Shown piece after piece: positions 1 to 27,181 of a stretch of DNA of 64,000 bases; position 1 is the first letter of the stretch, and each line of letters opens with the position of its first letter. This DNA is from a bacterium (GTDB lineage: Bacteria; Patescibacteriota; Saccharimonadia; Saccharimonadales; Saccharimonadaceae). The stretch is from NCBI GenBank assembly GCA_963623485.1, contig CAVFLV010000014.1, positions 6,461 to 70,460 of the forward strand, in the 5' to 3' direction. The notes beneath the pieces were generated by a model. The model was not told the DNA's origin and did not search any database. It was given only the letters and a program-made list of their open reading frames with translations. The position numbers and the translations under genes are program-made.

Positions 1-113
1 TTTTTGGTCGCGACCACAATAATCGCCACAATCAAAATCAAAATTATCGCTATCGCAATCGTCGCCACCGCAATAATTTTCCGACGCTCCTTTTTATCCT
101 CTTGATAATACAT
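1..113 (-). CDS. hypothetical membrane protein, N-terminal fragment running off the left edge
   Basis: ATG at 113-111. Hand translation MYYQEDKKERRKIIAVATIAIAIILILIVAIIVVATK gives a basic patch plus one TM helix. Open to base 1. Confidence 0.4.
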   Translation of the reverse strand, partial: MYYQEDKKERRKIIAVATIAIAIILILIVAIIVVATK

Positions 114-186
114 AAAAACTCCTTATCTTCCCATTATAGCACACATTCGGAGTTTTGTCAATTTTTTAGGGGTATTATGGCGAAAA

Positions 187-2247
187 TCAGGCTCCGGCCA
201 CACAGCGCACGGAAAAACCGTATACTTTGGGGTAGCTAGAGAAGCCTGGACTGGTACTTGAGGTGCTGAGATACATAACGTACGCAGTGGACGAATAGAA
301 ATTTGTGTAGTATGCGGTAGACGACCAGTAGAGACCATATCTGTTCCGATATTCGCTTTTGCTAGAGTTCCACCGCCCAGCATAAAGGAAGTTATTCGGG
401 AATTGGCGGAGCCGTGCGGACATCGCCGTTCCGGTCGGGCTCGTATAAGAACCCATGTAAGAACTCAACCCGCCCATAGAGGTAGATAGTGTACCAAAAC
501 TGTAGTTCGTGGTAGAATTTCCACTCGGCAATCGCCAGTTGGTCGGGCATAACGAGGTAGCTACGCTATCCGAAGCCGTGGCGTCATCCATCGCGGTAGT
601 ATTCGCCTTAGCCGCCGCCCAAGTATAATAGTTCCCGTAGCCATACCACTGCACCGCGTTGCCGTCCGCGTTGTATGATGGAGTTAAGGCTGTACCAGAT
701 GCATTCGTGCCACCAATATTAGTGTTATTGTTATTAAACCGTGGCATAGTAAAACCACTTCCGGTATTATACAGACTGTTTGCTGTTGTACTATTCGCAA
801 AATTGGTATCCTCCGAGCTAGCCAGTTTCGTAAAATCTCCGCCCACCCCTTGCGAACCCGAGGCAATTTTTTCCGCCGAGGTCGAGTCATCTAGTCGTAA
901 GTTTTCTAGCATCCAACAGTTTCCATCCGTAAGCCTCGCCACGGCGTAGACGTTCCCGTCGCGACTGTCTTCAAGCGCGATAAACGAGTTTGCCGTCGCG
1001 GTAAAGACCGCGCTAGTAGAGTTATAAGTTACGGCCGTGAGTTTGGTAGAGCAAACGCTAGATGAGAAAGTTTGCATAGTGTATTCCGTGGATTTCGGGA
1101 GCCACACGGCGTAAAGATTTAGCCCTTCGCTAGCTAGCGCGCTAAAGGTGATGTCTTCCATCGGACCGTAAATCGTGTCAGTGCCGATTGTCGGGTTTGC
1201 TTTTGTGCTCCAACCGAGGAACGCATAGCCACTTCGCTTAAAGTTATATGCCTGAAGTGTTGCCGAAGTCGCAGAGGTGCCTACGCTTTGATTCGCCATG
1301 GCGCCTTCTGCCGCGCTCGCATTACTATTGTAGCAAATGTATCCCGCATCACAAGCGCTCACTACGCTCTCTGTCCATTGAGCGTAAAGTGTTAATGCGT
1401 TGCTTGTAGAAGTTTGGTCGAGGGCATAACTTCCGCCCGCGGCGTATTCCACTCCGTCCCCGCTTGCGGTGGTATTCCAGCCGGCAAAATCATAGCCACT
1501 TCGTGTCGGGGTATCGGAGCTAATAATCGCTGTTTCTGACGCTGAGCTAGCGCTAGCGTTGCTCGGCATACCAGAAACCGTGTCCGTTCCGGCGTTGGCG
1601 TTGTAGGTAATCGTGTACGGTGTCGGGTTGGCGGTTACGGTGAACACAAAGGTATTTGAATAACTACCTATTGCCGTGTTCATATCTGCCCGTGCGCCAA
1701 TAGAAACGGTGTAATCGTTGCTCGTTGCGCTCGTAGCCGAGTCTATGGTTTCGTCTTCTGTGTCGGGCCACGGCAGATAATTCGTGTTAGCTACGCTGTT
1801 TAATTTACTCGGTTTATAACCCCATTTACCATTGTAGGCGCTAGTATTGAATGTTTCTGCCGAAATTGCCGAGTCGATCGAGGTAAACCCGGTCGTGCCG
1901 GCAGCATTATTCAGCCCCGTCGCGCTACTGGCTTTAACTTTCAAGACATATCCTGCTGCATGGGTCGTAGAAACGCTAATGGTTTCGTCTCCAGAATCCG
2001 CAAATTTCCCTTCTACAGAGGGCGGTAAGTCAATCGAGGGGCTACCCGAAATCGTGAGCGTTAAAGACGACGTAGCGGCAAGGACTTTTTTGCCACCAAA
2101 AAGCGAGACGATCATTATGATTGCTAACGCAAGTACCGTCAAAACCATTAACGCCACTCGTTTCGTCGCGACCGTCAAGAAGCCTGCCCCCCCCCTAAAA
2201 GGACCGCTACTTAAAACTGGTAAAGCTAGATTTTTTATACTCCACAT
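187..2247 (-). CDS. large surface protein, paralog A (Listeria-Bacteroides-type repeats plus FISUMP-like C-terminal domain)
   Basis: Track ORF 187..2298. TM/signal anchor VALMVLTVLALAIIMIV. Two repeats of the type YTITYNANAGTD..GYDFAGWNT..LTLYAQW. C-terminal DSRDGNVYAVARLTDGNCWMLENLRL .. YGNYYTW .. CPTNWRLPS. Start moved to ATG 2247 because TTG 2298 lies upstream of the TGGTATAAT -10. Confidence 0.8.
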   Translation of the reverse strand: MWSIKNLALPVLSSGPFRGGAGFLTVATKRVALMVLTVLALAIIMIVSLFGGKKVLAATSSLTLTISGSPSIDLPPSVEGKFADSGDETISVSTTHAAGYVLKVKASSATGLNNAAGTTGFTSIDSAISAETFNTSAYNGKWGYKPSKLNSVANTNYLPWPDTEDETIDSATSATSNDYTVSIGARADMNTAIGSYSNTFVFTVTANPTPYTITYNANAGTDTVSGMPSNASASSASETAIISSDTPTRSGYDFAGWNTTASGDGVEYAAGGSYALDQTSTSNALTLYAQWTESVVSACDAGYICYNSNASAAEGAMANQSVGTSATSATLQAYNFKRSGYAFLGWSTKANPTIGTDTIYGPMEDITFSALASEGLNLYAVWLPKSTEYTMQTFSSSVCSTKLTAVTYNSTSAVFTATANSFIALEDSRDGNVYAVARLTDGNCWMLENLRLDDSTSAEKIASGSQGVGGDFTKLASSEDTNFANSTTANSLYNTGSGFTMPRFNNNNTNIGGTNASGTALTPSYNADGNAVQWYGYGNYYTWAAAKANTTAMDDATASDSVATSLCPTNWRLPSGNSTTNYSFGTLSTSMGGLSSYMGSYTSPTGTAMSARLRQFPNNFLYAGRWNSSKSEYRNRYGLYWSSTAYYTNFYSSTAYVMYLSTSSTSPGFSSYPKVYGFSVRCVAGA
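2187..2195 (-). repeat. homopolymer tract C9 on plus strand (G9 on coding strand) inside the N-terminal coding region of paralog A
   Basis: Plus strand reads ctg ccccccccc taaaa. It encodes ..PFRGGAG.. between ATG 2247 and the membrane anchor. Confidence 0.95.
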
Positions 2248-2268
2248 ACAATCCACGCTTATATCATA

Positions 2269-2298
2269 ATTATACCACTCGTGGTTATAGAAAAACAA
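2269..2298 (-). promoter_or_regulatory. putative sigma70-type promoter of paralog A
   Basis: Minus strand TTGTTT-N18-TATAAT with TGg extension. Homologous to the sequence upstream of paralog B. Confidence 0.45.
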
Positions 2299-2378
2299 GT
2301 TTTTTGGATGTTTAATTTAGTTTAATTTAATTTAATGGTCGGGAGATTTTAGTCAAAAATGGTGTAACGGCTTTAGAA

Positions 2379-4268
2379 TTATTCGCCGGCGAGGCAGCGG
2401 ACTGGTAGTCCGGCGCGTTTGTAATTGTTGTCGGATGTAGCTACTATAGATTCGACAATAGTAAAGGTTATTGCAAAATTAATATATTTTCCGTTCGACC
2501 AGCGTGTCCAGACCGATGAAGCTTTTGATTTGTTGTACGGTCCATAGTTGGTATATGTTCCAGAATATACAAAATTGTTTGGAAATTGACGAAGCCGAGC
2601 AGACATTACCGCTCCAGTCGGGGTTCCACTAGCATCAAATGTGTCGGTAGTATCGCCGCTCATTGAAGCAGTTAATTCACGGGTTTTGTATACTGAATCG
2701 CGGTAACTGCCCGGCAACTTCCAATTAGCCGGGCAGATATCGCCAGCTACTGAACTGGACGTACTATATTTTCCGTTCCCCGCCGTCGCCGAATACCAGT
2801 TATAGTAATTCCCATAAGCATACCAGTTTCCTTCGTAAGTTCCGTCCATTTTTAGGTTATCCGTGTTAAGCATGGATTGATCGATACATTCCGCAGTGTC
2901 CTCGCTGCACCACGAACTCGAACTCGCCGAAAGCACAAAACCTTCAGCCGGGTTGTGAGTATTTGCGCTCGTGATTGTCGCCGTGTTGTCTAGTCGCAAG
3001 TTCTCCAGCATCCAACAATTCCCGTCCGTTAGCCTCGCCACGGCGTAGACATCTCCGTCACGCTCGTCTTCTAGAGCGATGAGTGAATCCGCGGAGACTG
3101 TGAAGTTGGTAGAAGTAGTCACCGAGGTTGTGCCGGACAGGTTAGTAGTGGTAGTTGCGGTGCTACTGTAGACCGTTGCGGTAAGTTCAGCGGAACAAAC
3201 GCTGGCCGAGAAAGTCTGCATCGTGTACTCCGTAGATTTCGGCAGCCACACCGCGTAAAGTGTGATGCCATCATCAGAAAGATTGGAAAAAGTGATATCT
3301 TCCATCGGTCCATAAATCGTATCAGTCCCAATCACCGGGTTTTGTTTCGTGCTCCAGCCGATGAAAGCGTAGCCGCTGCGTTTAAAGTTATATGCCTGAA
3401 GCGTTGCCGAGGTCGCGTAGGTAATTTCCTGAGGTGCCATCGTCCCCTCCACCGTGTCCGTGCCGGCATTACTATTATAATAAATGTATTTTTTCTTTGT
3501 CCACTGCGCATAAAGCGTAAGCGTATTATCTGTAGAAGTTTGGTTGAGGGTAAACGTGCTACCTTTGGCATAACCCGTCCCGCTTCCGCTAGCGGTAGTA
3601 TTCCATCCGCTAAAATCATAACCGCTCCGCGTCGGGGAGTTGGAGCTAATCGTGACCGTTTCTGTCGCTGAGCTAGCGCTAACATTACTCGGCATCCCCG
3701 AAACCGTGTCCGTCCCCGCATTAGCATTATAGGTGATTTTATACGGCGTGGGGTTCGCGGTAACAGTAAAAACAAAAGTGTTAGAATAATCCCCAATCGC
3801 GGTATCAATATTCGCTCTTGCGCCGATCGAGACCGTATATTTATTATTGGTGGCACTAGAAACTGAATCCAAGGTACTACCACTAGTCGTCGGGGCGGGG
3901 AGATAATTTGTGTTCGCCGTGCTATTTAGCTTGCTTGGCTTGTAGCCCCACTTACCATTATACGCGCTGGTATCAAAAGTCTCCGCCGAAATCGCCGAGG
4001 AAATAGAGGTGAAACCCGTCGTGCCGGACGAGTTCTTGAGGTCCGTCGCGCTGCTAGCCTTGACTTTCAAAACATACCCCGCCGCATGAGTAGTAGAAAC
4101 ACTAATCGTCTCATCTCCCGAATCCGCAAACTTCCCCTCCGCCGACGGCGGCAGGTTAATCGTAGGATTACCCGAAACAGAAATCGTCAGCGACGACGCC
4201 GTGGCAAAAACTTTTCGCTCGCCAAAAATCATTGTTATTACCGGAACCAAAAATACCAGCGCGAGCAA
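2379..4268 (-). CDS. large surface protein, paralog B (same architecture as paralog A)
   Basis: 629-aa ORF from TTG 4268. The first ~240 aa are near-identical to paralog A (GKFADSGDETISVSTTHAAGYVLKVKASSAT..). Same repeat type. Divergent FISUMP-like C-terminus (DGNCWMLENLRL, CPANWKLPG). Confidence 0.8.
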   Translation of the reverse strand: MLALVFLVPVITMIFGERKVFATASSLTISVSGNPTINLPPSAEGKFADSGDETISVSTTHAAGYVLKVKASSATDLKNSSGTTGFTSISSAISAETFDTSAYNGKWGYKPSKLNSTANTNYLPAPTTSGSTLDSVSSATNNKYTVSIGARANIDTAIGDYSNTFVFTVTANPTPYKITYNANAGTDTVSGMPSNVSASSATETVTISSNSPTRSGYDFSGWNTTASGSGTGYAKGSTFTLNQTSTDNTLTLYAQWTKKKYIYYNSNAGTDTVEGTMAPQEITYATSATLQAYNFKRSGYAFIGWSTKQNPVIGTDTIYGPMEDITFSNLSDDGITLYAVWLPKSTEYTMQTFSASVCSAELTATVYSSTATTTTNLSGTTSVTTSTNFTVSADSLIALEDERDGDVYAVARLTDGNCWMLENLRLDNTATITSANTHNPAEGFVLSASSSSWCSEDTAECIDQSMLNTDNLKMDGTYEGNWYAYGNYYNWYSATAGNGKYSTSSSVAGDICPANWKLPGSYRDSVYKTRELTASMSGDTTDTFDASGTPTGAVMSARLRQFPNNFVYSGTYTNYGPYNKSKASSVWTRWSNGKYINFAITFTIVESIVATSDNNYKRAGLPVRCLAGE

Positions 4269-4296
4269 AATTAATATTTTTGCGTATTTTCTACGG

Positions 4297-4313
4297 CTCT
4301 CTCTCTCTCTCTC
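4297..4313 (-). repeat. dinucleotide repeat (CT)8.5 on plus strand, (GA)8.5 on coding strand, just upstream of the paralog B ORF
   Basis: ctctctctctctctctc read directly. It lies between an upstream ATG (4378) and the TTG-initiated ORF (4268). Confidence 0.95.
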
Positions 4314-4383
4314 GAGCGGAAATCACAAAAAACACAGGAAATTGGATTTCTAGTTTTTTGCGTACATGTCATATTCATATATT

Positions 4384-4412
4384 ATGATAGCATTTATGGT
4401 TATAAAAAACAA
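4384..4412 (-). promoter_or_regulatory. putative promoter of paralog B
   Basis: Minus strand TTGTTT-N17-TATCAT(AAT) preceded by TGC. Overlaps the tatD stop. Confidence 0.4.
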
Positions 4413-5323
4413 GCTTTCGCGTTTTTCGTCGTCTTTTGTGCAACTTCTGCTTTTGAGATTTCGAGCTTTAGCGCCAACCAATCGGCAATGTTGGAAATAA
4501 AGGCCGGCTCGTTCGTCCCGCCACGGTGTGGCACTGGCGCAAGAAATGGTGCGTCGGTTTCGAGCAAAATCCGCTCGAGCGGCGGCGTCGGCAAAGTCGA
4601 ATAAGTCGCGAGACCATTTACGCCAACATAAAAGTCCGTCTCCGTCAAAATGCGGCGCAAAACTTTTTTACTATCCGTAAACGAATGTACCACTCCGCGC
4701 ACCGTCGGAAAGTTCGCCACCACCGGAAAGAAATCATCAAACGCCTCCCGCACATGAAACGACACCGGCAAATCGTGGTCAGTCGCCAATTGTAGCATCT
4801 CCTCGAACAACCGAATTTGTTTTTTCCGGTCATAACCCTCATAATGATAATCCAACCCGACTTCACCGATAGCAATGGGTGAAGTGTTTATGTTCCGGCG
4901 CAGGGTATTCCGGAGCGCGGCAGCGCGAGGATTAGCGCGCTCTCCCCATGGCGATGGGCGAGAGCGACGCGACCCTGCGCGGAACATAAACGCTTCGTCG
5001 CCAGAACTTGCATTCTCCGGATGAATCCCGTAAGTCCAAAACACATTTTCGTGCCCTCGCGCAAACTCCCTCGCTGCCAAAGAATCCTCGTGCGATGTCC
5101 CGATGCAAATAATCTTTTTCACCCCAGCCCGAAAAGCCCGCTCAAGGCACATCTCTGCCTCTTCCTCTGAGAAAAACTCTCGATCATGGAGGTGACAATG
5201 GGCGTCCACCAGGAACGAAGAGCCTCTTTCGAGGACCGTAGGCTTGGCCGAACGGCCTTGAGTGTGTCCGAGAAAGACGGTTCTTCGTTCCTTGTTAGCA
5301 GAGCTTTTATCCACGATTTTCAC
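4400..5323 (-). CDS. tatD: TatD-family metal-dependent hydrolase/DNase
   Basis: VDAHCHLHD, GIHPE, GEVGLDYHY, HSF and ETDAPF motifs. Contains an Arg-rich insert of ~35 aa. Confidence 0.85.
   Translation of the reverse strand: MKIVDKSSANKERRTVFLGHTQGRSAKPTVLERGSSFLVDAHCHLHDREFFSEEEAEMCLERAFRAGVKKIICIGTSHEDSLAAREFARGHENVFWTYGIHPENASSGDEAFMFRAGSRRSRPSPWGERANPRAAALRNTLRRNINTSPIAIGEVGLDYHYEGYDRKKQIRLFEEMLQLATDHDLPVSFHVREAFDDFFPVVANFPTVRGVVHSFTDSKKVLRRILTETDFYVGVNGLATYSTLPTPPLERILLETDAPFLAPVPHRGGTNEPAFISNIADWLALKLEISKAEVAQKTTKNAKACFL
4886..4991. repeat. GC-rich palindromic element (~106 nt) embedded in frame in tatD
   Basis: Terminal inverted repeats gtttatgttccggcgcagggt (4886-4906) and accctgcgcggaacataaac (4972-4991), matching 20/21. 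Further internal palindromes include cccatggcgatggg. Confidence 0.6.
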
Positions 5324-7121
5324 GTTTCCGTTTAATCGGGTCGAGCTGACGCTTACGTAGCCGGAGCGACTTTGGCGTCACCTCGAGCAGTTCGTCATCA
5401 AGCAAAAAGTCCAAACATTGCTCGAGCGACAACTGCGTATACGGCGTCAGCTGAATCGCCCCGTCCGAAGCGTGTGTCCGCATATTCGTCAGTTGTTTTT
5501 CACGACAAACATTAATATCCAGGTCATCTTTTTTGTTCGACAGCCCCACAATCATCCCTTGATACACCGGCACCTGCGGCGGAATATACAAAATCCCCCG
5601 CGCCTGTGCATTGTCCAACGCGTAAGCTGTCGAAGTTCCACTCTCCGACGCAATCAGCGCACCATTGCGTTCCGGCTTATACTTCCCCTCGACCGGACGA
5701 TATCCACTTGGCAAGCTTGACATCAACACCGTGCCTTTGGTCGCAGTCAACAAGTTATTCCTTAACCCAATCAGTGCCGCTGTCGAAATTTCATACACAA
5801 ATCGCGTCGCTCCGCTCGTGGTCAGCTCCTGTGATTTTAATTCCGCTTTGCGAATCCCGAGTTCCTGCGACACTGCCCCCACAAACTCCGACTCCACTTC
5901 AATCGTCAAATTCTCAATCGGCTCCTGCTTTACGCCGTCGATTTCTTTATACACCACTTCCGGCCGCCCCGCCTCGAGTTCATAACCTTCGCGCCGCATT
6001 GTCTCGATTAATACCGAAAGATGTAGCTCGCCCCGTCCCGACACCTTGTAGCCCAGTCCGTCCGGCGTGATTTTCAGCGCAATATTCGTTTCCAGCTCTT
6101 TTTCGAGCCGTTCCGCAATCTGCCGCGAAGTCGTAAACTCGCCTTCACGCCCCTTTAGCGGCGAAGTATTTGGCCCGATATAAATCGACAGCGTCGGCGC
6201 CTCGAGCTCGATCGTCGGCAAAGCCTCTGGATTGTCACCCGTCGCAATCGTATCACCAATATTCGCCTCCGCCACCCCCGTCAGCGCCACAATGTCCCCC
6301 GCAATCGCCTCGGAAACTTCCTCTTTCCCGAGACCCTTATAAACGAAAACTTTGTCAATCTTGCCAGGGTGCGTAGAAGAACTACTTAAAATTTTTACAC
6401 TCTGACCTTTTTTAAGTTTACCTCTAAAAATCTTGCCAATACAATATTTTCCAAGATAATTATCCGACGCCAGCGCCGCAACCAAAAGTTGCGCCGACTC
6501 GGCGGTTTCGTCCACCGACGGCGCCGGAATATCGTTGATAATCGACTCGAAAATCACATGCAAATCATTGTCCAGCTTGGTCGTTTTCCCCGCTCTGCCC
6601 TCGCGCGCAATTGCATAATAAACCGGATAAAACAGTTGCGACTCGTCCGTCGCGAGCTCCAAAAACAGACTCTCGATCTCACTTTTCACCTCTTCAATTC
6701 GCGCCGCCGGCTTGTCGATTTTATTAATTATCACCACTGGCTTCAAATTCAGCTCCAATGCCTTTTGCAATACAAACTTCGTTTGTGGCATTGGCCCTTC
6801 TTGCGCATCTACAATCAAAAACACCCCGTCCGCCATATTCAGCGTCCGCTCGACCTCCCCCGAAAAGTCCGCGTGCCCCGGCGTATCGATAATATTAATC
6901 TTATACCCGTCATAATACACACAAGTCTGCTTTGCCGTAATCGTAATCCCGCGCTCATGCTCCTGATCCATCGAATCCATAATCAAGGTCTGCGACATCT
7001 CGGCCTGATTGTCGCGAAAAGTGTGCGACTGCTTTAACAGCCCGTCCACTAATGTAGTTTTGCCATGGTCAACGTGCGCAATAATCGCCACGTTGCGAAT
7101 TTTATCTTTATTCAAAGTCAT
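5307..7121 (-). CDS. typA: translational GTPase TypA/BipA
   Basis: AIIAHVDHGKTTLVD, DTPGHADF and NKIDK GTPase motifs. 604 aa. Confidence 0.95.
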   Translation of the reverse strand: MTLNKDKIRNVAIIAHVDHGKTTLVDGLLKQSHTFRDNQAEMSQTLIMDSMDQEHERGITITAKQTCVYYDGYKINIIDTPGHADFSGEVERTLNMADGVFLIVDAQEGPMPQTKFVLQKALELNLKPVVIINKIDKPAARIEEVKSEIESLFLELATDESQLFYPVYYAIAREGRAGKTTKLDNDLHVIFESIINDIPAPSVDETAESAQLLVAALASDNYLGKYCIGKIFRGKLKKGQSVKILSSSSTHPGKIDKVFVYKGLGKEEVSEAIAGDIVALTGVAEANIGDTIATGDNPEALPTIELEAPTLSIYIGPNTSPLKGREGEFTTSRQIAERLEKELETNIALKITPDGLGYKVSGRGELHLSVLIETMRREGYELEAGRPEVVYKEIDGVKQEPIENLTIEVESEFVGAVSQELGIRKAELKSQELTTSGATRFVYEISTAALIGLRNNLLTATKGTVLMSSLPSGYRPVEGKYKPERNGALIASESGTSTAYALDNAQARGILYIPPQVPVYQGMIVGLSNKKDDLDINVCREKQLTNMRTHASDGAIQLTPYTQLSLEQCLDFLLDDELLEVTPKSLRLRKRQLDPIKRKRENRG

Positions 7122-22764: not shown

Positions 22765-24498
22765 ATGCCTTTAGAATTCATTTACCACAAGATTAAAAAC
22801 ACTTTGCGCAAAATCGACATCAAGCTCGAGGGCGCAAAATACAAATATATTGAAAAAATGCCAAAAGATATCGAATATTTTGACGGCGGGCTTTATGATG
22901 CGATTTATGAAGCGAGCTGTAAATATCCGCTCAACACGGCAATCAAATATTTTGACACCGAAATATCTTATCGGGATATGGTCAAAAAAATCAACAAAGT
23001 CGCGGCGGCCTTAAAAGCCATTGGCGCAGAAAAAGGCGAAAAAATCACCGTCTGTATGCCAAACACCCCCGAAGCGGTCTATATGTTCTACGCAATCAAT
23101 GAAATCGGCGCCGTGGCGAACATGGTCCACCCGCTTTCAAGCGAAAAAGAAATCGAGAATTATTTGAACAAGGCGCATTCTAAAATCATGCTCTGTATCG
23201 ACATTTCCTATCCGAAAGTCGAGGCGATTATCAAAAACACCGACCTCGAACAGGTCATTGTGGTTTCGCCGTCGCGTTCGATGGATATGATTGTGCGTGC
23301 AATCTATAAACTCACCAAGGGACGCAAAAACCACATCAAAAAATCTCAGCACGTCATCACTTGGGACCGGTTCTTGATGCGCGCTAGCCGGTTCGTTGGT
23401 AATCCCCATGCCCGGGTCAACTCTACCGACGACGCCGTGATTATGTATTCCGGCGGCACCACCGGTCGCCCGAAAGGAATTATCCTTTCGAATTTAAACT
23501 TCAACGCCCAGGCACTCGGCGCCAAATATCTTGTGCCGGAATTATTCAAAACCGACTATTCGTTTATGTCCTTCTTGCCGAACTTTCACGCTTTCGGATT
23601 GGGCTGTTGTATTCATATGCCCCTTTATTTCGGCGCAACCATCGTATTAATTCCGCAGTTTTCCGCTAAAAAGTTCAAAAGTTATATCAAAAAGTATAAA
23701 CTTAACGTATTAGTGGGCGTGCCGACCGTGTTTGAATACATGACCAAAATCAAATTTGGCAAAACCGACTTAAGACACGTTAAATACGTAGTTTCCGGCG
23801 GCGACACGGTCAGCATGACTAGCAAAGAAAACATCAACGAATTTTTAAAGGCACACGGTTCGAAGGCCGTTATCGAAAATGGCTACGGATTGACCGAGGC
23901 TTCGGGCGGTTTCATTTTCTCTCCGCGCTCTATCGCCGAGGAACCCGATTCTATCGGCTATCCAATTCCCGATAACGAAGTTTTGATTTTGGATTTAAAA
24001 ACCGGCCAACCAGTTCCGCTTGGTAAAGACGGCGAAATTGTGGTGCGCGGGCTTTCAGTTATGAAAGGCTATCTCGGCAACCCCGAGGACACCGCCGCGG
24101 CATTCACTAAAGTCGGCACCAAAAAATATCTCCGTACCGGCGATATCGGTTACCTCGACGAGCGAGGCGTGGTTCATTTCCGCTCGCGCCTAAAACGCAT
24201 GATCGTCTCAAACGGCTACAACATTTACCCCGCCAACATCGAAGATATCACTTTGAAATGTAAATTAGTGGCGAGTTGTGCCGTGGTCGGACACGAAGAT
24301 AAACTACGTGGCGAAAAGGTGGTAGTATTCGTGGTTGCCAAACCCGACGCGTCCGAACGCGCTATCCGCAAAGAGTTAGCTAGTATCTATCGCAAAAACT
24401 TAGCCAAATACGAAATCCCGCGCGAAATCAAATTCATCGCCGAACTCCCCAAAACCAAAATGGCCAAAGTCGACTTCCGCGCTTTGGAAAAAATGTAG
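22765..24498 (+). CDS. AMP-dependent synthetase/ligase (long-chain acyl-CoA ligase-like)
   Basis: YSGGTTGRPKG AMP-binding motif and GYGLTE. 577 aa. TAAAAT lies 6 nt before the ATG. Confidence 0.85.
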   Translation: MPLEFIYHKIKNTLRKIDIKLEGAKYKYIEKMPKDIEYFDGGLYDAIYEASCKYPLNTAIKYFDTEISYRDMVKKINKVAAALKAIGAEKGEKITVCMPNTPEAVYMFYAINEIGAVANMVHPLSSEKEIENYLNKAHSKIMLCIDISYPKVEAIIKNTDLEQVIVVSPSRSMDMIVRAIYKLTKGRKNHIKKSQHVITWDRFLMRASRFVGNPHARVNSTDDAVIMYSGGTTGRPKGIILSNLNFNAQALGAKYLVPELFKTDYSFMSFLPNFHAFGLGCCIHMPLYFGATIVLIPQFSAKKFKSYIKKYKLNVLVGVPTVFEYMTKIKFGKTDLRHVKYVVSGGDTVSMTSKENINEFLKAHGSKAVIENGYGLTEASGGFIFSPRSIAEEPDSIGYPIPDNEVLILDLKTGQPVPLGKDGEIVVRGLSVMKGYLGNPEDTAAAFTKVGTKKYLRTGDIGYLDERGVVHFRSRLKRMIVSNGYNIYPANIEDITLKCKLVASCAVVGHEDKLRGEKVVVFVVAKPDASERAIRKELASIYRKNLAKYEIPREIKFIAELPKTKMAKVDFRALEKM

Positions 24499-24518
24499 GT
24501 TTCATACAGTATGAGATA

Positions 24519-25051
24519 TTAAAAATAGACCGTAGCGATATCGTCGTATTCGAACGCCGCCAATTCTCTAGCCGCCTCAGCAATCAGTTTTTTCACTCCA
24601 CTTATTTGTAAAATCTGATGATAATGCAAATGCCCAGGCTCGTCATCCCAAATTCTCATTTTTGAACACTTCTCAACTTTCAGCGATGTGCTATTAAACA
24701 TTTTTCTAAGTGCTTTTTCGGTATAAGTACTATGCGCAAATGCATCAGAACAATCAAACGTGTGAACAAAAAACTTGCCGCCATTTTTTAAATTTTTTTC
24801 TATGGTCTCAATAAGTTTCTCGGGGGTTTTAACTTCTGAATTACATAATTAGAGTAAACAAAATCGTAGGGACCGCTATTAGAAATATACAATTTATTTA
24901 AGTCTACACCATAAAGAATATCTACACCATCACATCTACACCCGAGATCTTCTAGGCCTTTAATATCAACCCTGCTTCCACATCCTAAATCTAGGGCCTT
25001 TCCGGGCTTCTCGAACTCTTGCATGATATATTCTTTTAGTTCTGGATTCAT
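24519..25051 (-). pseudogene. class I SAM-dependent methyltransferase, interrupted by a frameshift in a C5 run
   Basis: The 83-aa fragment has motif I LDLGCGS and ends ..QKLKPPRNLLRP*. Shifting frame at the ccccc run (plus-strand ggggg at 24822-24826) continues PEKLIETIEKNLKNGGKFFVHTF.. into the 60-aa ORF 24519..24701. A C6 run would restore one ORF of ~175 aa. Confidence 0.7.
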
Positions 25052-25065
25052 GTATTCATTGTATC

Positions 25066-25097
25066 ATAAAAAGACCCCGAATTTTGAATTCGGGGTC
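25066..25097 (-). terminator. intrinsic terminator after the radical SAM gene
   Basis: Perfect 11-bp stem gaccccgaatt/aattcggggtc with a 3-nt loop, followed on the minus strand by TTTTT. Confidence 0.8.
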
Positions 25098-25104
25098 GTG
25101 TTTA

Positions 25105-26190
25105 TCATATCCAACATTCCGGATCTTCGCCCATAATGTCGCCACTAAACGCAAGTGCTCTCGCGCGACAACCGCAACACGAATATTTTTTCGAACAATC
25201 AGAACACTTACCATGAAGACTCATATCGAGGAACATCTTCGTTATCTTATTTTGCCGATATCTATCCGCGATTTCTTCGATTGTGAGATCGAAAACGTTC
25301 ATCATTGGGACTTCAAGAAGCGAACATGGAGTCATAACGCCATCGGAATTCACGTTAAAAGAGACAGTGCCGGCATGACAACCGTCCATGACAATTTCCG
25401 ACTCAGACGTCGGCTCATCACTCGCTCCTCTCACCAAACATTTTAATGGGTCGTTTGTAGTGACATTTATGTGTGGATACTTTTTCTTGAGATAATAAAT
25501 ATTTTCTAAAAATTGCTTTTTTTGACTACTCGTCATCCACATGTGATTATTATCTTTTGCTTTTCCGGAATAAATTACGGATGTGAAACTTATTCTTTTA
25601 CATTCTAATTCATCAGCTAAAGCAACACGTTCTACCATTTCGTCTATCACATCCGGCATAACGACGGTTTTCATAGAAGGAACGAGTTTTTCGCTCTTCC
25701 TGTTTGCAATCATCGTTAATGCAGAGGTTGCCTTATCAAAAGCTCCTTTATATCCACGAAAAGCATCGTGTGCTGCCGAATTCACAGAGTCAATACTAAC
25801 CGACAGCATGAGTCTTTCGAATGCCAATGATTCGAAAAAATCAAGCAGACCCTCTGTTATTAGTGAGCCATTCGTGGTTATAGTCAAGTAATCAGCGCCG
25901 TTGCTTCTGAGAATTTTTACGACTTCGCGAAAATTTTCATGCAACAACGGCTCTCCACCAGAAATGGTCACTTCTTTATAATCTGGACTATATTTTCTCG
26001 CAAACTTCATAATTTTCAAGATTTCGCTTAATGGCATGTCTTTTCTTGGCATGTTACTTGCCCTACAATGCGCACAGCTCATATTACAACGCCCCGTAAT
26101 TTCTATCTGTATAGGCCCAAGCTCGATATCATATATAGCTGACTCAGTTTCCACTTCAAGATATTTATAACTCTCATTACAGCAATGCAT
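25105..26190 (-). CDS. radical SAM enzyme with C-terminal SPASM domain (peptide-maturase-like)
   Basis: GRCNMSCAHC (CX3CX2C) at residues 34-43. GGEPLL. C-terminal GCHAGTVSFNVNSDGVMTPC and KCSDCSKKYSCCGC ... DPEC Cys array. AGGAGGG SD before the ATG. Confidence 0.85.
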   Translation of the reverse strand: MHCCNESYKYLEVETESAIYDIELGPIQIEITGRCNMSCAHCRASNMPRKDMPLSEILKIMKFARKYSPDYKEVTISGGEPLLHENFREVVKILRSNGADYLTITTNGSLITEGLLDFFESLAFERLMLSVSIDSVNSAAHDAFRGYKGAFDKATSALTMIANRKSEKLVPSMKTVVMPDVIDEMVERVALADELECKRISFTSVIYSGKAKDNNHMWMTSSQKKQFLENIYYLKKKYPHINVTTNDPLKCLVRGASDEPTSESEIVMDGCHAGTVSFNVNSDGVMTPCSLLEVPMMNVFDLTIEEIADRYRQNKITKMFLDMSLHGKCSDCSKKYSCCGCRARALAFSGDIMGEDPECWI

Positions 26191-26211
26191 ATTCGTCCCT
26201 CCTTTAAAAGT

Positions 26212-26242
26212 GATGGGGCGGTGTAAAAAACATCACCCCATC
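26212..26242 (-). promoter_or_regulatory. hairpin (putative attenuator/leaky terminator) between the mini-ORF and the radical SAM gene
   Basis: 12-position stem gatggggcggtg/catcaccccatc with 1 mismatch and 1 wobble. Loop is U-rich. Followed on the minus strand by CUUUUAAAGGAGGG. Confidence 0.55.
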
Positions 26243-26259
26243 TGGTTGTCTATTGATTT

Positions 26260-26319
26260 TTATTCACAACGACAACAGCTACCTTTTCCGATCCTTACAC
26301 GAAAACGACGTTTCTTCAT
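26260..26319 (-). CDS. 19-aa Cys-rich basic peptide MKKRRFRVRIGKGSCCRCE (candidate radical-SAM substrate/precursor); not in the supplied ORF track
   Basis: Hand translation of the minus strand: atg aag aaa cgt cgt ttt cgt gta agg atc gga aaa ggt agc tgt tgt cgt tgt gaa taa. Preceded by AGGAGGTG and 6 nt. 69 nt upstream of the rSAM start on the same strand. Confidence 0.6.
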   Translation of the reverse strand: MKKRRFRVRIGKGSCCRCE

Positions 26320-26381
26320 ATTTATCACCTCCTTTCTTCTTAAAGTACTGACCCGTCTGCTATATAAACGAACCTATTTTT

Positions 26382-26410
26382 ATGATAGCATACTTTTGCT
26401 ATTTTTGCAA
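26382..26410 (-). promoter_or_regulatory. putative promoter of the mini-ORF/radical SAM operon
   Basis: Minus strand TTGCAA-N17-TATCAT, about 60 nt upstream of the mini-ORF. Confidence 0.5.
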
Positions 26411-26575
26411 ATATTCCGTATTATCTCACAACCTTTGCAATATAAAATGACAACCTCTTGCCATCAAAATAGGTGGGCCCTATACTTATATCAATATCAC
26501 CTAATAAAAGGAGGACCTGTCTATGTTATATCGAAAATGTTAACTATAAAAAAGCGGTTATGAGAGTTGTATGAG

Positions 26576-27181
26576 CTATAACTGCGTCCGATTTTCGAGC
26601 GCCGCGCTCAAAGTAATTTGGTCAGCATAGGACAAATCCACCCCGAGCGGCAATCCTCGCGCTAGCCGAGTTAGCTTTAAATTCGGATTTTGCTCGTGGA
26701 GCATTTTTTCGAGTAATAAGGCCGTCGATTCCCCCTCTACCGACGGGTTTGTTGCGATAATCACTTCTTTCACGTTGTCGTTATTGACGCGCTTAATCAG
26801 CTCGCCAATATGCAGTTGCTCCGGCGTGATGCCGTCAATCGGCGACACCGCCCCACCTAGCACATGATAAGTTCCTTTAAAATTATGCGTCTGCTCTATC
26901 GCGTAAATATCTAACGGCTCCTCCACGACCAGCACCGTCGACTTGTCGCGCGTCGGGTCGGCATAAAACGGCGATACCTCGTCCTCCGCGTCAATCAACG
27001 CGAAAGTTACTGGGCAAGATTTTAGCCCTGCGTGTAGCCCCGAAATCGCCTCCGCGATATTCTCCGCGATTTTCGGATTAGAGCGAAACAAAAAGTAGGC
27101 ATACCGTTCCGCCGTTTTCGGACCTACTCCAGGTAGCCGCCCCAGCGCCTCAATTACCTCCGCCAACGCTTGTGGTAACAT
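26576..27181 (-). CDS. recR: recombination protein RecR
   Basis: LGRLPGVGPKTAERYAYFL HhH motif and Toprim region VIIATNPSVEGE. The usual C4 zinc finger is absent. Confidence 0.9.
   Translation of the reverse strand: MLPQALAEVIEALGRLPGVGPKTAERYAYFLFRSNPKIAENIAEAISGLHAGLKSCPVTFALIDAEDEVSPFYADPTRDKSTVLVVEEPLDIYAIEQTHNFKGTYHVLGGAVSPIDGITPEQLHIGELIKRVNNDNVKEVIIATNPSVEGESTALLLEKMLHEQNPNLKLTRLARGLPLGVDLSYADQITLSAALENRTQL

Follow-up and report, generated by a model that had tools for sequence, protein, structure and literature searches.

A short peptide gene linked to a radical SAM/SPASM enzyme and a methyltransferase in candidate phyla radiation bacteria: a putative peptide-maturation cassette without a recognition element

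In a 64,000-nucleotide (nt) stretch of DNA from a bacterium of the family Saccharimonadaceae (hereafter the window), we identified a three-gene cassette that encodes a very short basic peptide, a radical S-adenosylmethionine (SAM)/SPASM enzyme and a SAM-dependent methyltransferase, and that recurs across bacteria of the candidate phyla radiation. The best reading of this cassette is an undescribed peptide-maturation system that lacks a RiPP recognition element (RRE; RiPP, a peptide that is synthesized ribosomally and modified post-translationally). Taken jointly with the mechanism proposed below, it appears probable to us that the cassette is self-contained, is exchanged horizontally and makes a post-translationally modified peptide. 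The predicted relationship of precursor and maturase is strongly supported by sequence comparison, given that the small open reading frame (mini-ORF) encoding the peptide is found at nearly all assessable loci and also next to distant relatives of the enzyme, evolves under purifying selection, and comes with a conserved promoter, Shine-Dalgarno sequence and stem-loop. The full set of SPASM cysteines, the sequence similarity to SkfB and CteB and the structural similarity to SkfB, SuiB, PqqE, CteB and the anaerobic sulfatase-maturing enzyme (anSME) point to an enzyme of the peptide-modifying type, and the lack of any other recurrent gene, the varying flanks, the low G+C content and the low synonymous divergence are the grounds for regarding the cassette as self-contained. 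The layout of precursor and maturase that an initial annotation of the window had recognized is borne out by a peptide gene that is co-conserved and co-oriented with the enzyme gene and is under purifying selection.

The mini-ORF product of the window, MKKRRFRVRIGKGSCCRCE, consists of 19 amino acids (aa) with a net charge of +7, and a Shine-Dalgarno sequence is located 8 nt ahead of the ORF. Conservation of this gene was assessed in a sample that included 5 genome loci, 7 loci retrieved by exact protein look-up, 80 metagenome loci and the window; the sample collapses to 66 non-redundant groups (enzyme identity <92%), among which 61 contain enough upstream DNA to judge. A co-oriented basic mini-ORF is located 5' of the enzyme gene in 60 of these 61 groups, the enzymes of which are 41-80% identical, and ends 7-200 nt before the enzyme gene. 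Three further sampled relatives, with an enzyme identity of 33-38%, also possess such a mini-ORF (..VTIEKNACCTCGSFK, ..KLRAGKRACSTCFN and ..VTLSRCRCFTCDTN), so that the conservation beside orthologs on which the initial annotation had staked the precursor assignment is indeed seen. The C-terminal core of the peptide has the form [RK][IV]GKGSCxxC[DE], with recognizably related variants such as IGKNSCGICS, RIGLGCCIECD, GRNNCRTCDSNGP.. and VGKNTCSTSGSYK, and the first Cys is the sole residue that is present in every variant. The peptides are 19-22 aa long in Saccharibacteria and reach about 37 aa elsewhere, with net charges from +5 to +11; the N-terminal part is basic and variable in length and sequence, and the C-terminal core is more conserved. 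Thus, the peptide had been described correctly as short and basic, and the accompanying statement that it has no obvious leader has to be amended, in that a variable basic N-terminal part does exist.

At the fixed core positions, a comparison of 39 distinct nucleotide versions yields 2748 synonymous and 328 non-synonymous pairwise codon differences, a ratio that is partly built in since the 39 versions were picked for the canonical core; the informative part of the comparison is that every synonymous codon family is in use at the fixed core residues. Given the presence of the core upstream of the homologous enzyme genes and the free use of synonymous codons, chance is excluded as an explanation, and these comparisons indicate that the mini-ORF is a real gene under strong purifying selection. 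The longer forms of the peptide are present in public protein sets as unnamed or 'hypothetical' proteins, as determined by exact look-up, and the same look-up found no forms shorter than 30 aa. None of the curated family libraries searched (NCBIfam, Pfam, PADLOC and PHROGs) contains a match for the peptide. Because gene callers miss precursors shorter than 30 aa, the system is invisible to standard annotation.

Several loci in the sample deviate from the common pattern. The only assessable locus in which we found no peptide is L084 (positions 2977-6652; 28% G+C), which encodes three tandem radical SAM paralogs. Both L084 and L085 (446-2547) are very AT-rich (28-30% G+C) and contain two or three tandem enzyme paralogs; the peptide of L085 ends in ..RIGLGCCIECD. 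A distant peptide subtype, which ends in ..GKN[AT]C[ST]TSGSYK or ..EKNACCTCGSFK, is encoded in L089, L092 and L173; in L089 and L092, the peptide contains one Cys and no methyltransferase gene is located nearby, and the neighbors of L173 include Amidohydro_2, APH-like and acetyltransferase genes.

The peptide and enzyme genes of the window are separated by a stem-loop of 12 base pairs (bp) with a predicted energy of -19.8 kcal/mol (z = -3.15). For 50 of 58 non-redundant loci, a stable fold is predicted no more than 70 nt from the peptide stop codon (median energy -24 kcal/mol, median z = -3.6); its sequence is not conserved across loci, and the loci that lack a stable structure are those with a very short gap between the peptide and enzyme genes. 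In the search for terminators, the window hairpin was not scored as an intrinsic one, and the folded hairpins of most relatives are not followed by a U-run. It is for the former reason that 'attenuator', the term originally applied to this element, should be taken as tentative; what holds is a conserved stem-loop between the two genes, mostly devoid of a U-tract. Intercistronic stem-loops are common downstream of RiPP and pqqA precursor genes, where they raise the ratio of precursor to enzyme message, and by analogy we read the stem-loop as an intercistronic element of this kind rather than a proven attenuator.

The combination of a short ORF with two or three late Cys codons, a stable hairpin and an enzyme gene superficially resembles an attenuator, which raises the question whether the mini-ORF might be a cis-regulatory leader peptide, such that translation of its Cys codons controls the hairpin and the substrate of the enzyme is encoded elsewhere. 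In leader peptides, however, only the regulatory codons matter, whereas here at least 11 residues are conserved as amino acids, with free synonymous change, over phylum-scale divergence. Furthermore, the hairpin mostly lacks a U-tract, is found at varying distances from the stop codon and is missing from loci with a short gap, and in nine groups the methyltransferase gene is located 5' of the peptide gene, which is still joined to the enzyme gene. Hence a regulatory role of the peptide seems to us very improbable.

The enzyme carries the radical SAM cluster motif C35-X3-C39-X2-C42 and the SPASM cysteines C271-X12-G284-X4-C289, C329-X2-C332-X5-C338-X2-C341 and C359, along with C251, all of which are invariant among 18 diverse members of the family. 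With the CX3CX2C motif, the 7-Cys SPASM motif and Pfam matches above the gathering thresholds (Radical_SAM, 73 bits; SPASM, 24.9 bits), it belongs to the radical SAM/SPASM superfamily, in agreement with the initial description of a 361-aa enzyme with CX3CX2C and a complete SPASM Cys set. There is no room in this protein for an RRE because the Radical_SAM domain begins at residue 29 and the iron-sulfur motif at residue 35, and the SPASM domain extends to residue 359 of 361; an N-terminal RRE or PqqD-like domain is therefore lacking, as had been noted, and no PqqD-like gene was detected among the called neighbors or the recurrent clusters of neighboring ORFs. Conservation is strong in the first 34 residues, an acidic segment with 7 acidic and 2 basic side chains, and in the AlphaFold2 model of the enzyme (predicted local distance difference test score, pLDDT, 81.8) residues ~11-34 of this conserved, acidic segment form a beta-hairpin.

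A profile search of solved structures identified SkfB as the best match (1.2e-16), followed by CteB (6e-12, full length), with the alignments beginning at residue 112 of SkfB and residue 101 of CteB. The best Foldseek matches of the model are SkfB, SuiB, PqqE, CteB and anSME, with TM-scores of 0.6-0.7, and PqqE is also among the best matches at both the sequence and the structure level. All five proteins act on peptides or proteins, and the model suggests that it is these peptide-modifying SPASM enzymes that the cassette enzyme most resembles.

The enzyme does not reach the cut-off of any NCBIfam model. The highest scores are those of NirJ2 (132 bits, cut-off 500), AhbD (130 bits, cut-off 500), GeoRSP (128 bits, cut-off 400) and TIGR04053 (124 bits, cut-off 395), followed at a distance by PqqE (81 bits, cut-off 381), MftC (71 bits, cut-off 265), PapB (NF047865; 67.2 bits, cut-off 340) and the models of sactipeptide maturases (61-75 bits, far under their cut-offs); neither an anSME model nor the SCIFF maturase model is among the best 25 NCBIfam hits. 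The members of the AhbD/NirJ/GeoRSP/TIGR04053 group have the same length as our enzyme and likewise lack an RRE. However, the scores amount to about a quarter to a third of the respective cut-offs, no tetrapyrrole genes are located near the cassette, the neighbors of which are unrelated housekeeping genes, and a dedicated peptide is conserved upstream of the enzyme; we accordingly rejected an AhbD- or NirJ-type role in a heme pathway. An assignment as PqqE or MftC (scores under the cut-offs, no partner genes) was rejected as well, and the score against the PapB model of ranthipeptide maturases is far under the cut-off. Thus, the grouping with a non-peptide SPASM family that the initial annotation had named as fatal to its proposal is not seen, and for both the enzyme and the methyltransferase a search for a curated family in NCBIfam, Pfam, PADLOC and PHROGs ended at the superfamily level.

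Within Saccharibacteria, the enzyme has relatives with 70-80% identity; for those in Paceibacterota, Moranbacteria, Magasanikbacteria and other Patescibacteria, the value is about 50-55%. In an exhaustive search of 1.84 billion cluster representatives, only 2 representatives were at least 50% identical to the enzyme; about 50 more clusters, with 30-42% identity, can be aligned from the N-terminal hairpin onward, and under ~135 bits the matches are generic SPASM proteins.

These observations allow us to propose a mechanism. As read from the sequence, the mRNA from the first promoter (P1) encodes the 19-aa polycationic precursor followed by the radical SAM/SPASM enzyme; the stem-loop would keep the precursor message in excess of the enzyme message. 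Since the enzyme has no RRE, it would bind the peptide directly: the basic, beta-strand-like (K/R)x(V/I)(R/K)(I/V)GKG segment may dock on the acidic N-terminal beta-hairpin, which, in our proposal, would take the place of an RRE in binding the polycationic peptide. The 5'-deoxyadenosyl radical would then be used on the invariant C-terminal core GSC-x-x-C-[D/E]. In the favored reaction, an intramolecular thioether would join the first Cys to the carbon beside the carboxylate of the residue four positions downstream, giving a small macrocycle at the C-terminus of a cationic tail; the methyltransferase, a protein of ~155 aa that is apparently encoded by a second, leaderless transcript, would then methylate this product, perhaps at the remaining thiol or at a carboxylate. 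The leading guess, by analogy, is a Cys-X3-Asp/Glu thioether like that introduced by PapB in freyrasin. This motif, counted from the invariant first Cys (C-x-x-C-[D/E]), is present in 44 of the 60 peptides, usually with the acid as the C-terminal residue, and 3 more have Cys-X4-Asp. Cys-X3-Asp/Glu motifs are crosslinked by PapB, for which spacings of 0-6 residues are acceptable (PMC9413430), and the enzyme is able to couple a Cys to the C-terminal residue at its carboxylate (PMC12373016); the shared motif, this tolerance of spacing and the use of a C-terminal acceptor are the reasons for which we favor a thioether.

A number of findings weigh against this scheme. The AhbD/NirJ-type models (130 bits) outscore those of PapB (67 bits) and the sactipeptide maturases (61-75 bits), all of these scores being under the cut-offs. 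Ten of the 60 peptides end in S, N or R rather than in D or E, two distant variants have a single Cys, the methyltransferase is missing from 7 of 51 groups, and clustering of the neighboring ORFs revealed no conserved exporter, protease or immunity gene. In CteB, thioether formation involves an open iron site on auxiliary cluster I that binds the substrate Cys, whereas the 8 invariant cysteines available here for two auxiliary clusters would allow full cluster ligation, as in anSME and SuiB. Finally, a conserved core combined with a variable N-terminus is the opposite of the typical RiPP and is the pattern of cofactor precursors.

A further reading is a modification of the peptide that does not involve a crosslink, such as conversion of the invariant Cys to formylglycine or a thioaldehyde as in anSME, oxidative decarboxylation at the acidic C-terminus as in AhbD or MftC, or epimerization. 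anSME has the same size and domain plan as the cassette enzyme (~370 aa, with about 360-370 aa spanning both; no RRE; two auxiliary clusters, for the full ligation of which eight cysteines are available here as well), acts on a Cys-containing substrate and has a TM-score of 0.60-0.65 to the enzyme model; the best NCBIfam scores are those of the decarboxylases AhbD and NirJ2, and a C-terminal residue bearing a carboxylate is conserved. Unlike the substrates of anSME, however, the peptide is a dedicated mini-peptide with the core GSCxxC[DE] and without the sulfatase motif C/S-x-P/A-x-R, no sulfatase gene is located nearby, and the anSME model is missing from the best 25 hits, so that the identity with anSME was rejected, only the fold and the domain plan being shared. 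Several members of the peptide family extend beyond the Asp, so the acid is not always C-terminal, and all sequence similarities are at the superfamily level only. Modification without a crosslink is, in our assessment, distinctly unlikely.

The pattern of conservation within the peptide also raises the possibility that it is the precursor of a small cofactor or of a metal- or redox-active molecule that acts inside the cell, comparable to PqqA/PqqE or MftA/MftC; the enzyme would alter the invariant C-terminal residues, and trimming may be left to housekeeping peptidases. The core is nearly invariant down to ~50% enzyme identity and the N-terminal part varies in length and sequence, as is the case in PqqA and MftA and not in antibiotic RiPPs. 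Similarly to PqqA and MftA, the precursor is very short, has its invariant residues at the C-terminal end and is encoded next to a SPASM enzyme, and a stem-loop also follows pqqA. Moreover, no exporter, immunity gene or dedicated protease is found among the recurrent neighbors, CxxC is a classic redox or metal-binding motif, and PqqE is among the best sequence and structural matches of the enzyme. In contrast to the pyrroloquinoline quinone and mycofactocin pathways, the neighborhoods of the cassette encode neither a PqqD/MftB-type chaperone nor downstream enzymes (PqqB/C, MftD/E/F) nor a pathway peptidase. The scores against PqqE and MftC are far too low, there is no linked candidate for a cofactor-dependent enzyme, and a patchy, mobile, compositionally foreign and sometimes disrupted cassette is better suited to an accessory trait. 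We therefore regard a cofactor precursor as unlikely. A broader proposal, which we also consider unlikely albeit the least so of the alternatives, is that the cassette is not another thioether RiPP system but a minimal two- or three-gene route to a new Cys-derived peptide product with RRE-independent recognition. In that case, the polycationic peptide could dock on the acidic N-terminal hairpin of the enzyme, and the product could be a thiol, redox or metal-binding cofactor-like molecule or the outcome of a new radical Cys chemistry. If so, a product conserved across the candidate phyla radiation would be passed horizontally among ultra-small symbionts, and might serve host interaction or a missing metabolic function.

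With respect to the favored maturation of the peptide by a crosslink, the systems to be compared are the ranthipeptide and sactipeptide systems. PapB/PapA (freyrasin) and CteB/SCIFF resemble the cassette in that a radical SAM/SPASM enzyme is encoded beside a short Cys-containing precursor; PapB shares the motif spacing with the majority of the peptides and CteB is among the best sequence and structure matches of the enzyme. The cassette differs from the ranthipeptide systems in the absence of an RRE, the size of the precursor (19-37 aa), the presence of one motif instead of six, the conservation of the core rather than the leader, the linked methyltransferase, and eight rather than seven conserved cysteines in the SPASM region. 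The sactipeptide maturases SkfB, AlbA and StsB form a thioether from a Cys in a short peptide, and SkfB is the top match among solved structures; however, these enzymes contain an N-terminal RRE of ~100 residues that our enzyme lacks, and SkfB has a twitch domain in place of the full SPASM domain found here.

The methyltransferase, ~155 aa long in the relatives, adjoins the enzyme or the peptide gene in 44 of 51 assessable groups, being located downstream of the enzyme gene in 33 groups; 9 groups have it upstream of the peptide gene and 2 have it on the opposite strand. The intact relative yields a Methyltransf_23 score of 61 bits, and a Rossmann-type fold together with the glycine-rich loop of motif I (xDxGCG), with invariant D21, G23 and G25, identifies the protein as a class I SAM-dependent methyltransferase; no cut-off of a specific methyltransferase subfamily was reached. 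The AlphaFold2 model (pLDDT 96) retrieves TehB, BioC, Ecm18 and generic small-molecule methyltransferases as the best Foldseek matches, which are not diagnostic, and an attempt to derive a substrate from the structure was dropped. In the window and 12 relatives (L001, L003, L004, L006, L009, L011, L013, L015, L016, L020, L026 and L028), a terminator equivalent to that of the window is present between the enzyme and methyltransferase genes in 13 of 13 sequences and is followed by TGnTAnAAT located 6-7 nt before the methyltransferase ATG, with no Shine-Dalgarno sequence. The window itself conforms, as read from the sequence, with the -10 box 6 nt ahead of the ATG, and this geometry of terminator, -10 box and ATG is conserved in loci of Saccharibacteria and of other candidate phyla. 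The terminator, the extended -10 box so close to the start codon and the lack of a Shine-Dalgarno sequence predict a separately promoted, leaderless methyltransferase mRNA.

In the window, the methyltransferase frame is interrupted by a 1-nt deletion in an A-run (A4 at 24827-24830 versus A5 in the intact ortholog), and insertion of one A into the A4C5 run (24830-24822) renders the frame collinear with the intact relatives. A second 1-nt difference in an A-run near position 24587 (A6 versus A6G) replaces the normal stop by a 22-aa tail. The gene is 92.9% identical at the nucleotide level to its intact ortholog, with no lesion beyond these two single-base deletions, and the ratio of non-synonymous to synonymous substitution rates (dN/dS) between the window and L178, a syntenic relative described below, is 0.13 for the methyltransferase as well as for the enzyme. 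Thus, of the original description of a separately promoted, frameshifted and decayed methyltransferase, the first two attributes stand and the third does not, considering that the gene is intact in L178. The adjacency in three different arrangements, the conserved promoter of its own and the dN/dS value indicate that the methyltransferase, with a transcript of its own, belongs integrally to the cassette and is not a decayed bystander. From these data, sequencing error and recent slippage cannot be told apart as the origin of the homopolymer indels.

Truncated methyltransferase ORFs of 99-120 aa (P0164, P0169, P0178 and P0179) are also found on several long contigs (30-168 kb), which suggests that the gene has been disrupted repeatedly, in other genomes or assemblies as well. 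The last beta-strands of the methyltransferase carry a nearly invariant D..GHxHxH motif (positions 136-145 of P0121; WDDEPGHLHYHQILQ in the window, at about 24600-24640 on the minus strand), a candidate metal or substrate site. In a single locus, L011 from Paceibacterota (5654-6730), a gene for the SAM synthetase MetK is located in convergent orientation directly after the methyltransferase gene.

The cassette is flanked by recR (26576-27181) on one side and by an acyl-CoA ligase gene in convergent orientation (22765-24498) on the other. The region 24519-26575 has a G+C content of 38.3%, compared to 46.9% for the whole window, and is the lowest-GC 2-kb stretch in the 64 kb; at third codon positions, the enzyme gene has a G+C content of 0.38, compared to 0.60 for recR and 0.57 for the ligase gene. 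The relative L178 (Logan SRR19415656, locus 1-4973) is syntenic with the window, with ybaB, recR, the peptide, enzyme and methyltransferase genes and the convergent ligase gene, and is 88% identical to it over 4.9 kb. In L178, the frameshift site reads A5 and the methyltransferase is intact, the enzyme gene is split by an indel in a T-run into ORFs of 119 aa and 246 aa, and the peptide ends in Lys rather than Glu (MKKRRFRVRIGKGSCCRCK); all 5 indels between the window and L178 are located in A or T homopolymers. Nucleotide identity between the two is 93-95% in the cassette and 84-86% in the flanks, and the synonymous divergence (dS) is 0.22-0.24 in the cassette compared to 0.84 in recR and 1.33 in the ligase gene, that is, 4-6 times lower in the cassette. 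The low dS of the cassette relative to the flanks implies that it was exchanged after the two host lineages diverged, and indicates that this exchange was recent and took place at a chromosomal site that is conserved. More generally, the flanking genes vary between genomes even for cassettes that are 78-80% identical. Together, the base composition, the differing flanks and the dS contrast substantiate the AT-rich insert perceived in the initial annotation.

When the neighboring ORFs were clustered all-against-all, only the enzyme, the methyltransferase and overlapping shadow frames recurred; the protease, exporter and immunity genes that had been reported missing next to the cassette in the window do not recur in this clustering either, and neither do sulfatase, heme or known defense genes. 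Carriage by phages or plasmids was rejected given that the best relatives in viral contigs are at most 26% identical and those in plasmids at most 28% identical (TIGR04053-type), and transposon-like borders were rejected in the absence of convincing direct or inverted terminal repeats. The best pair found, with 21-nt arms at 24508-24528 and 26374-26394 that are 81% complementary, is an imperfect inverted repeat bracketing the methyltransferase gene's end and the -10 box of P1; the DNA being AT-rich, this repeat is probably due to chance.

A small, mobile, low-G+C cassette in variable contexts would also fit an anti-phage or conflict system in which, as in prokaryotic viperins, the radical SAM enzyme makes a toxic or signaling product. 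The PADLOC search returned pVip hits of 72 bits, and one cassette (L003) has a neighbor that, from inspection of the ORF by eye, we take to be of the DUF262 type. However, the pVip matches span only the generic radical SAM core (residues 27-230) and are weaker than the hits to SPASM families, and viperins lack the SPASM domain that is present in full in this enzyme, so that the identification as a prokaryotic viperin was rejected. In addition, no member of the family was found in viral contigs or plasmids, and no known defense gene recurs near the cassette. A role in defense thus appears highly unlikely.

The peptide, the enzyme family and the cassette are undescribed in the searchable full-text literature, a search to which subscription-only papers are external. 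Radical SAM/SPASM peptide maturation is a known kind of system; the unusual features are the lack of an RRE, a 19-37-aa precursor in which the core and not the leader is conserved, a leaderless accessory methyltransferase, and horizontal exchange among bacteria of the candidate phyla radiation. The genomes of these bacteria (Saccharibacteria, Paceibacterota and relatives) are tiny, and almost no biosynthetic capacity is generally ascribed to them. That a cassette is kept and exchanged among them, with 11 core residues nearly invariant, suggests that its product has a conserved target or a role in the symbiotic lifestyle. From the standpoint of RiPP enzymology, this is a very small natural system, with a 19-aa substrate, a 361-aa RRE-less SPASM enzyme and an optional 155-aa methyltransferase; it would provide a tractable model of leader-independent substrate recognition and, possibly, a compact tool for peptide macrocyclization. 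The evidence from the genomes is solid, and the system lends itself to experiment.

The features of the cassette are listed in Table 1. The transcription and translation signals originally read from the minus strand, namely a TTGCAA-N17-TATCAT promoter, a strong Shine-Dalgarno sequence followed by a 19-codon ORF, a 12-position hairpin followed by CUUUU, and a strong terminator after the enzyme gene, are all present, the promoter with an additional TG extension.

Table 1. Positions in the window of the genes and signals that make up the cassette
Feature	Position	Strand	Basis or details
Promoter P1 of the peptide-enzyme transcript	26382..26410	-	consensus scan
P1 -35 box	26410-26405	-	TTGCAA; followed by a 17-nt spacer
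P1 -10 box	26387-26382	-	TATCAT, TG-extended
Shine-Dalgarno sequence of the precursor-peptide gene	26332-26328	-	GGAGG
Precursor-peptide gene	26319-26260	-	stop included
Intercistronic stem-loop between peptide and enzyme genes	26212..26242	-	9+3 bp, then CUUUU
Shine-Dalgarno sequence of the enzyme gene	26206-26198	-	AAAGGAGGG; 3' of the stem-loop and CUUUU
Radical SAM/SPASM enzyme gene, 361 aa	25105..26190	-	Pfam Radical_SAM, Fer4_12, SPASM
Intrinsic terminator after the enzyme gene	25073..25097	-	11-bp G+C-rich stem, then UUUUU; z = -5.15
Promoter P2 of the methyltransferase	25049..25066	-	TG 25066-25065, -10 TACAAT 25063-25058, ATG 25051-25049
Class I SAM-dependent methyltransferase frame, frameshifted	24519..25051	-	Pfam Methyltransf_23 on the N-terminal fragment

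The sequence TTGCA-N16/17-TGnTATnAT is also found 5' of the peptide gene in the relatives from Saccharibacteria. A search against Rfam yielded nothing above the gathering thresholds in the leader, the stem-loop or the intergenic regions of the cassette. In the window (26320-26381, minus strand) as well as in L001, L002, L004 and L006, the 5' leader of the peptide mRNA contains a small hairpin, and the block CACTTTTACAGAAAGGAGGTGAT, which is located 3' of this hairpin and includes the Shine-Dalgarno sequence, is conserved among these loci.

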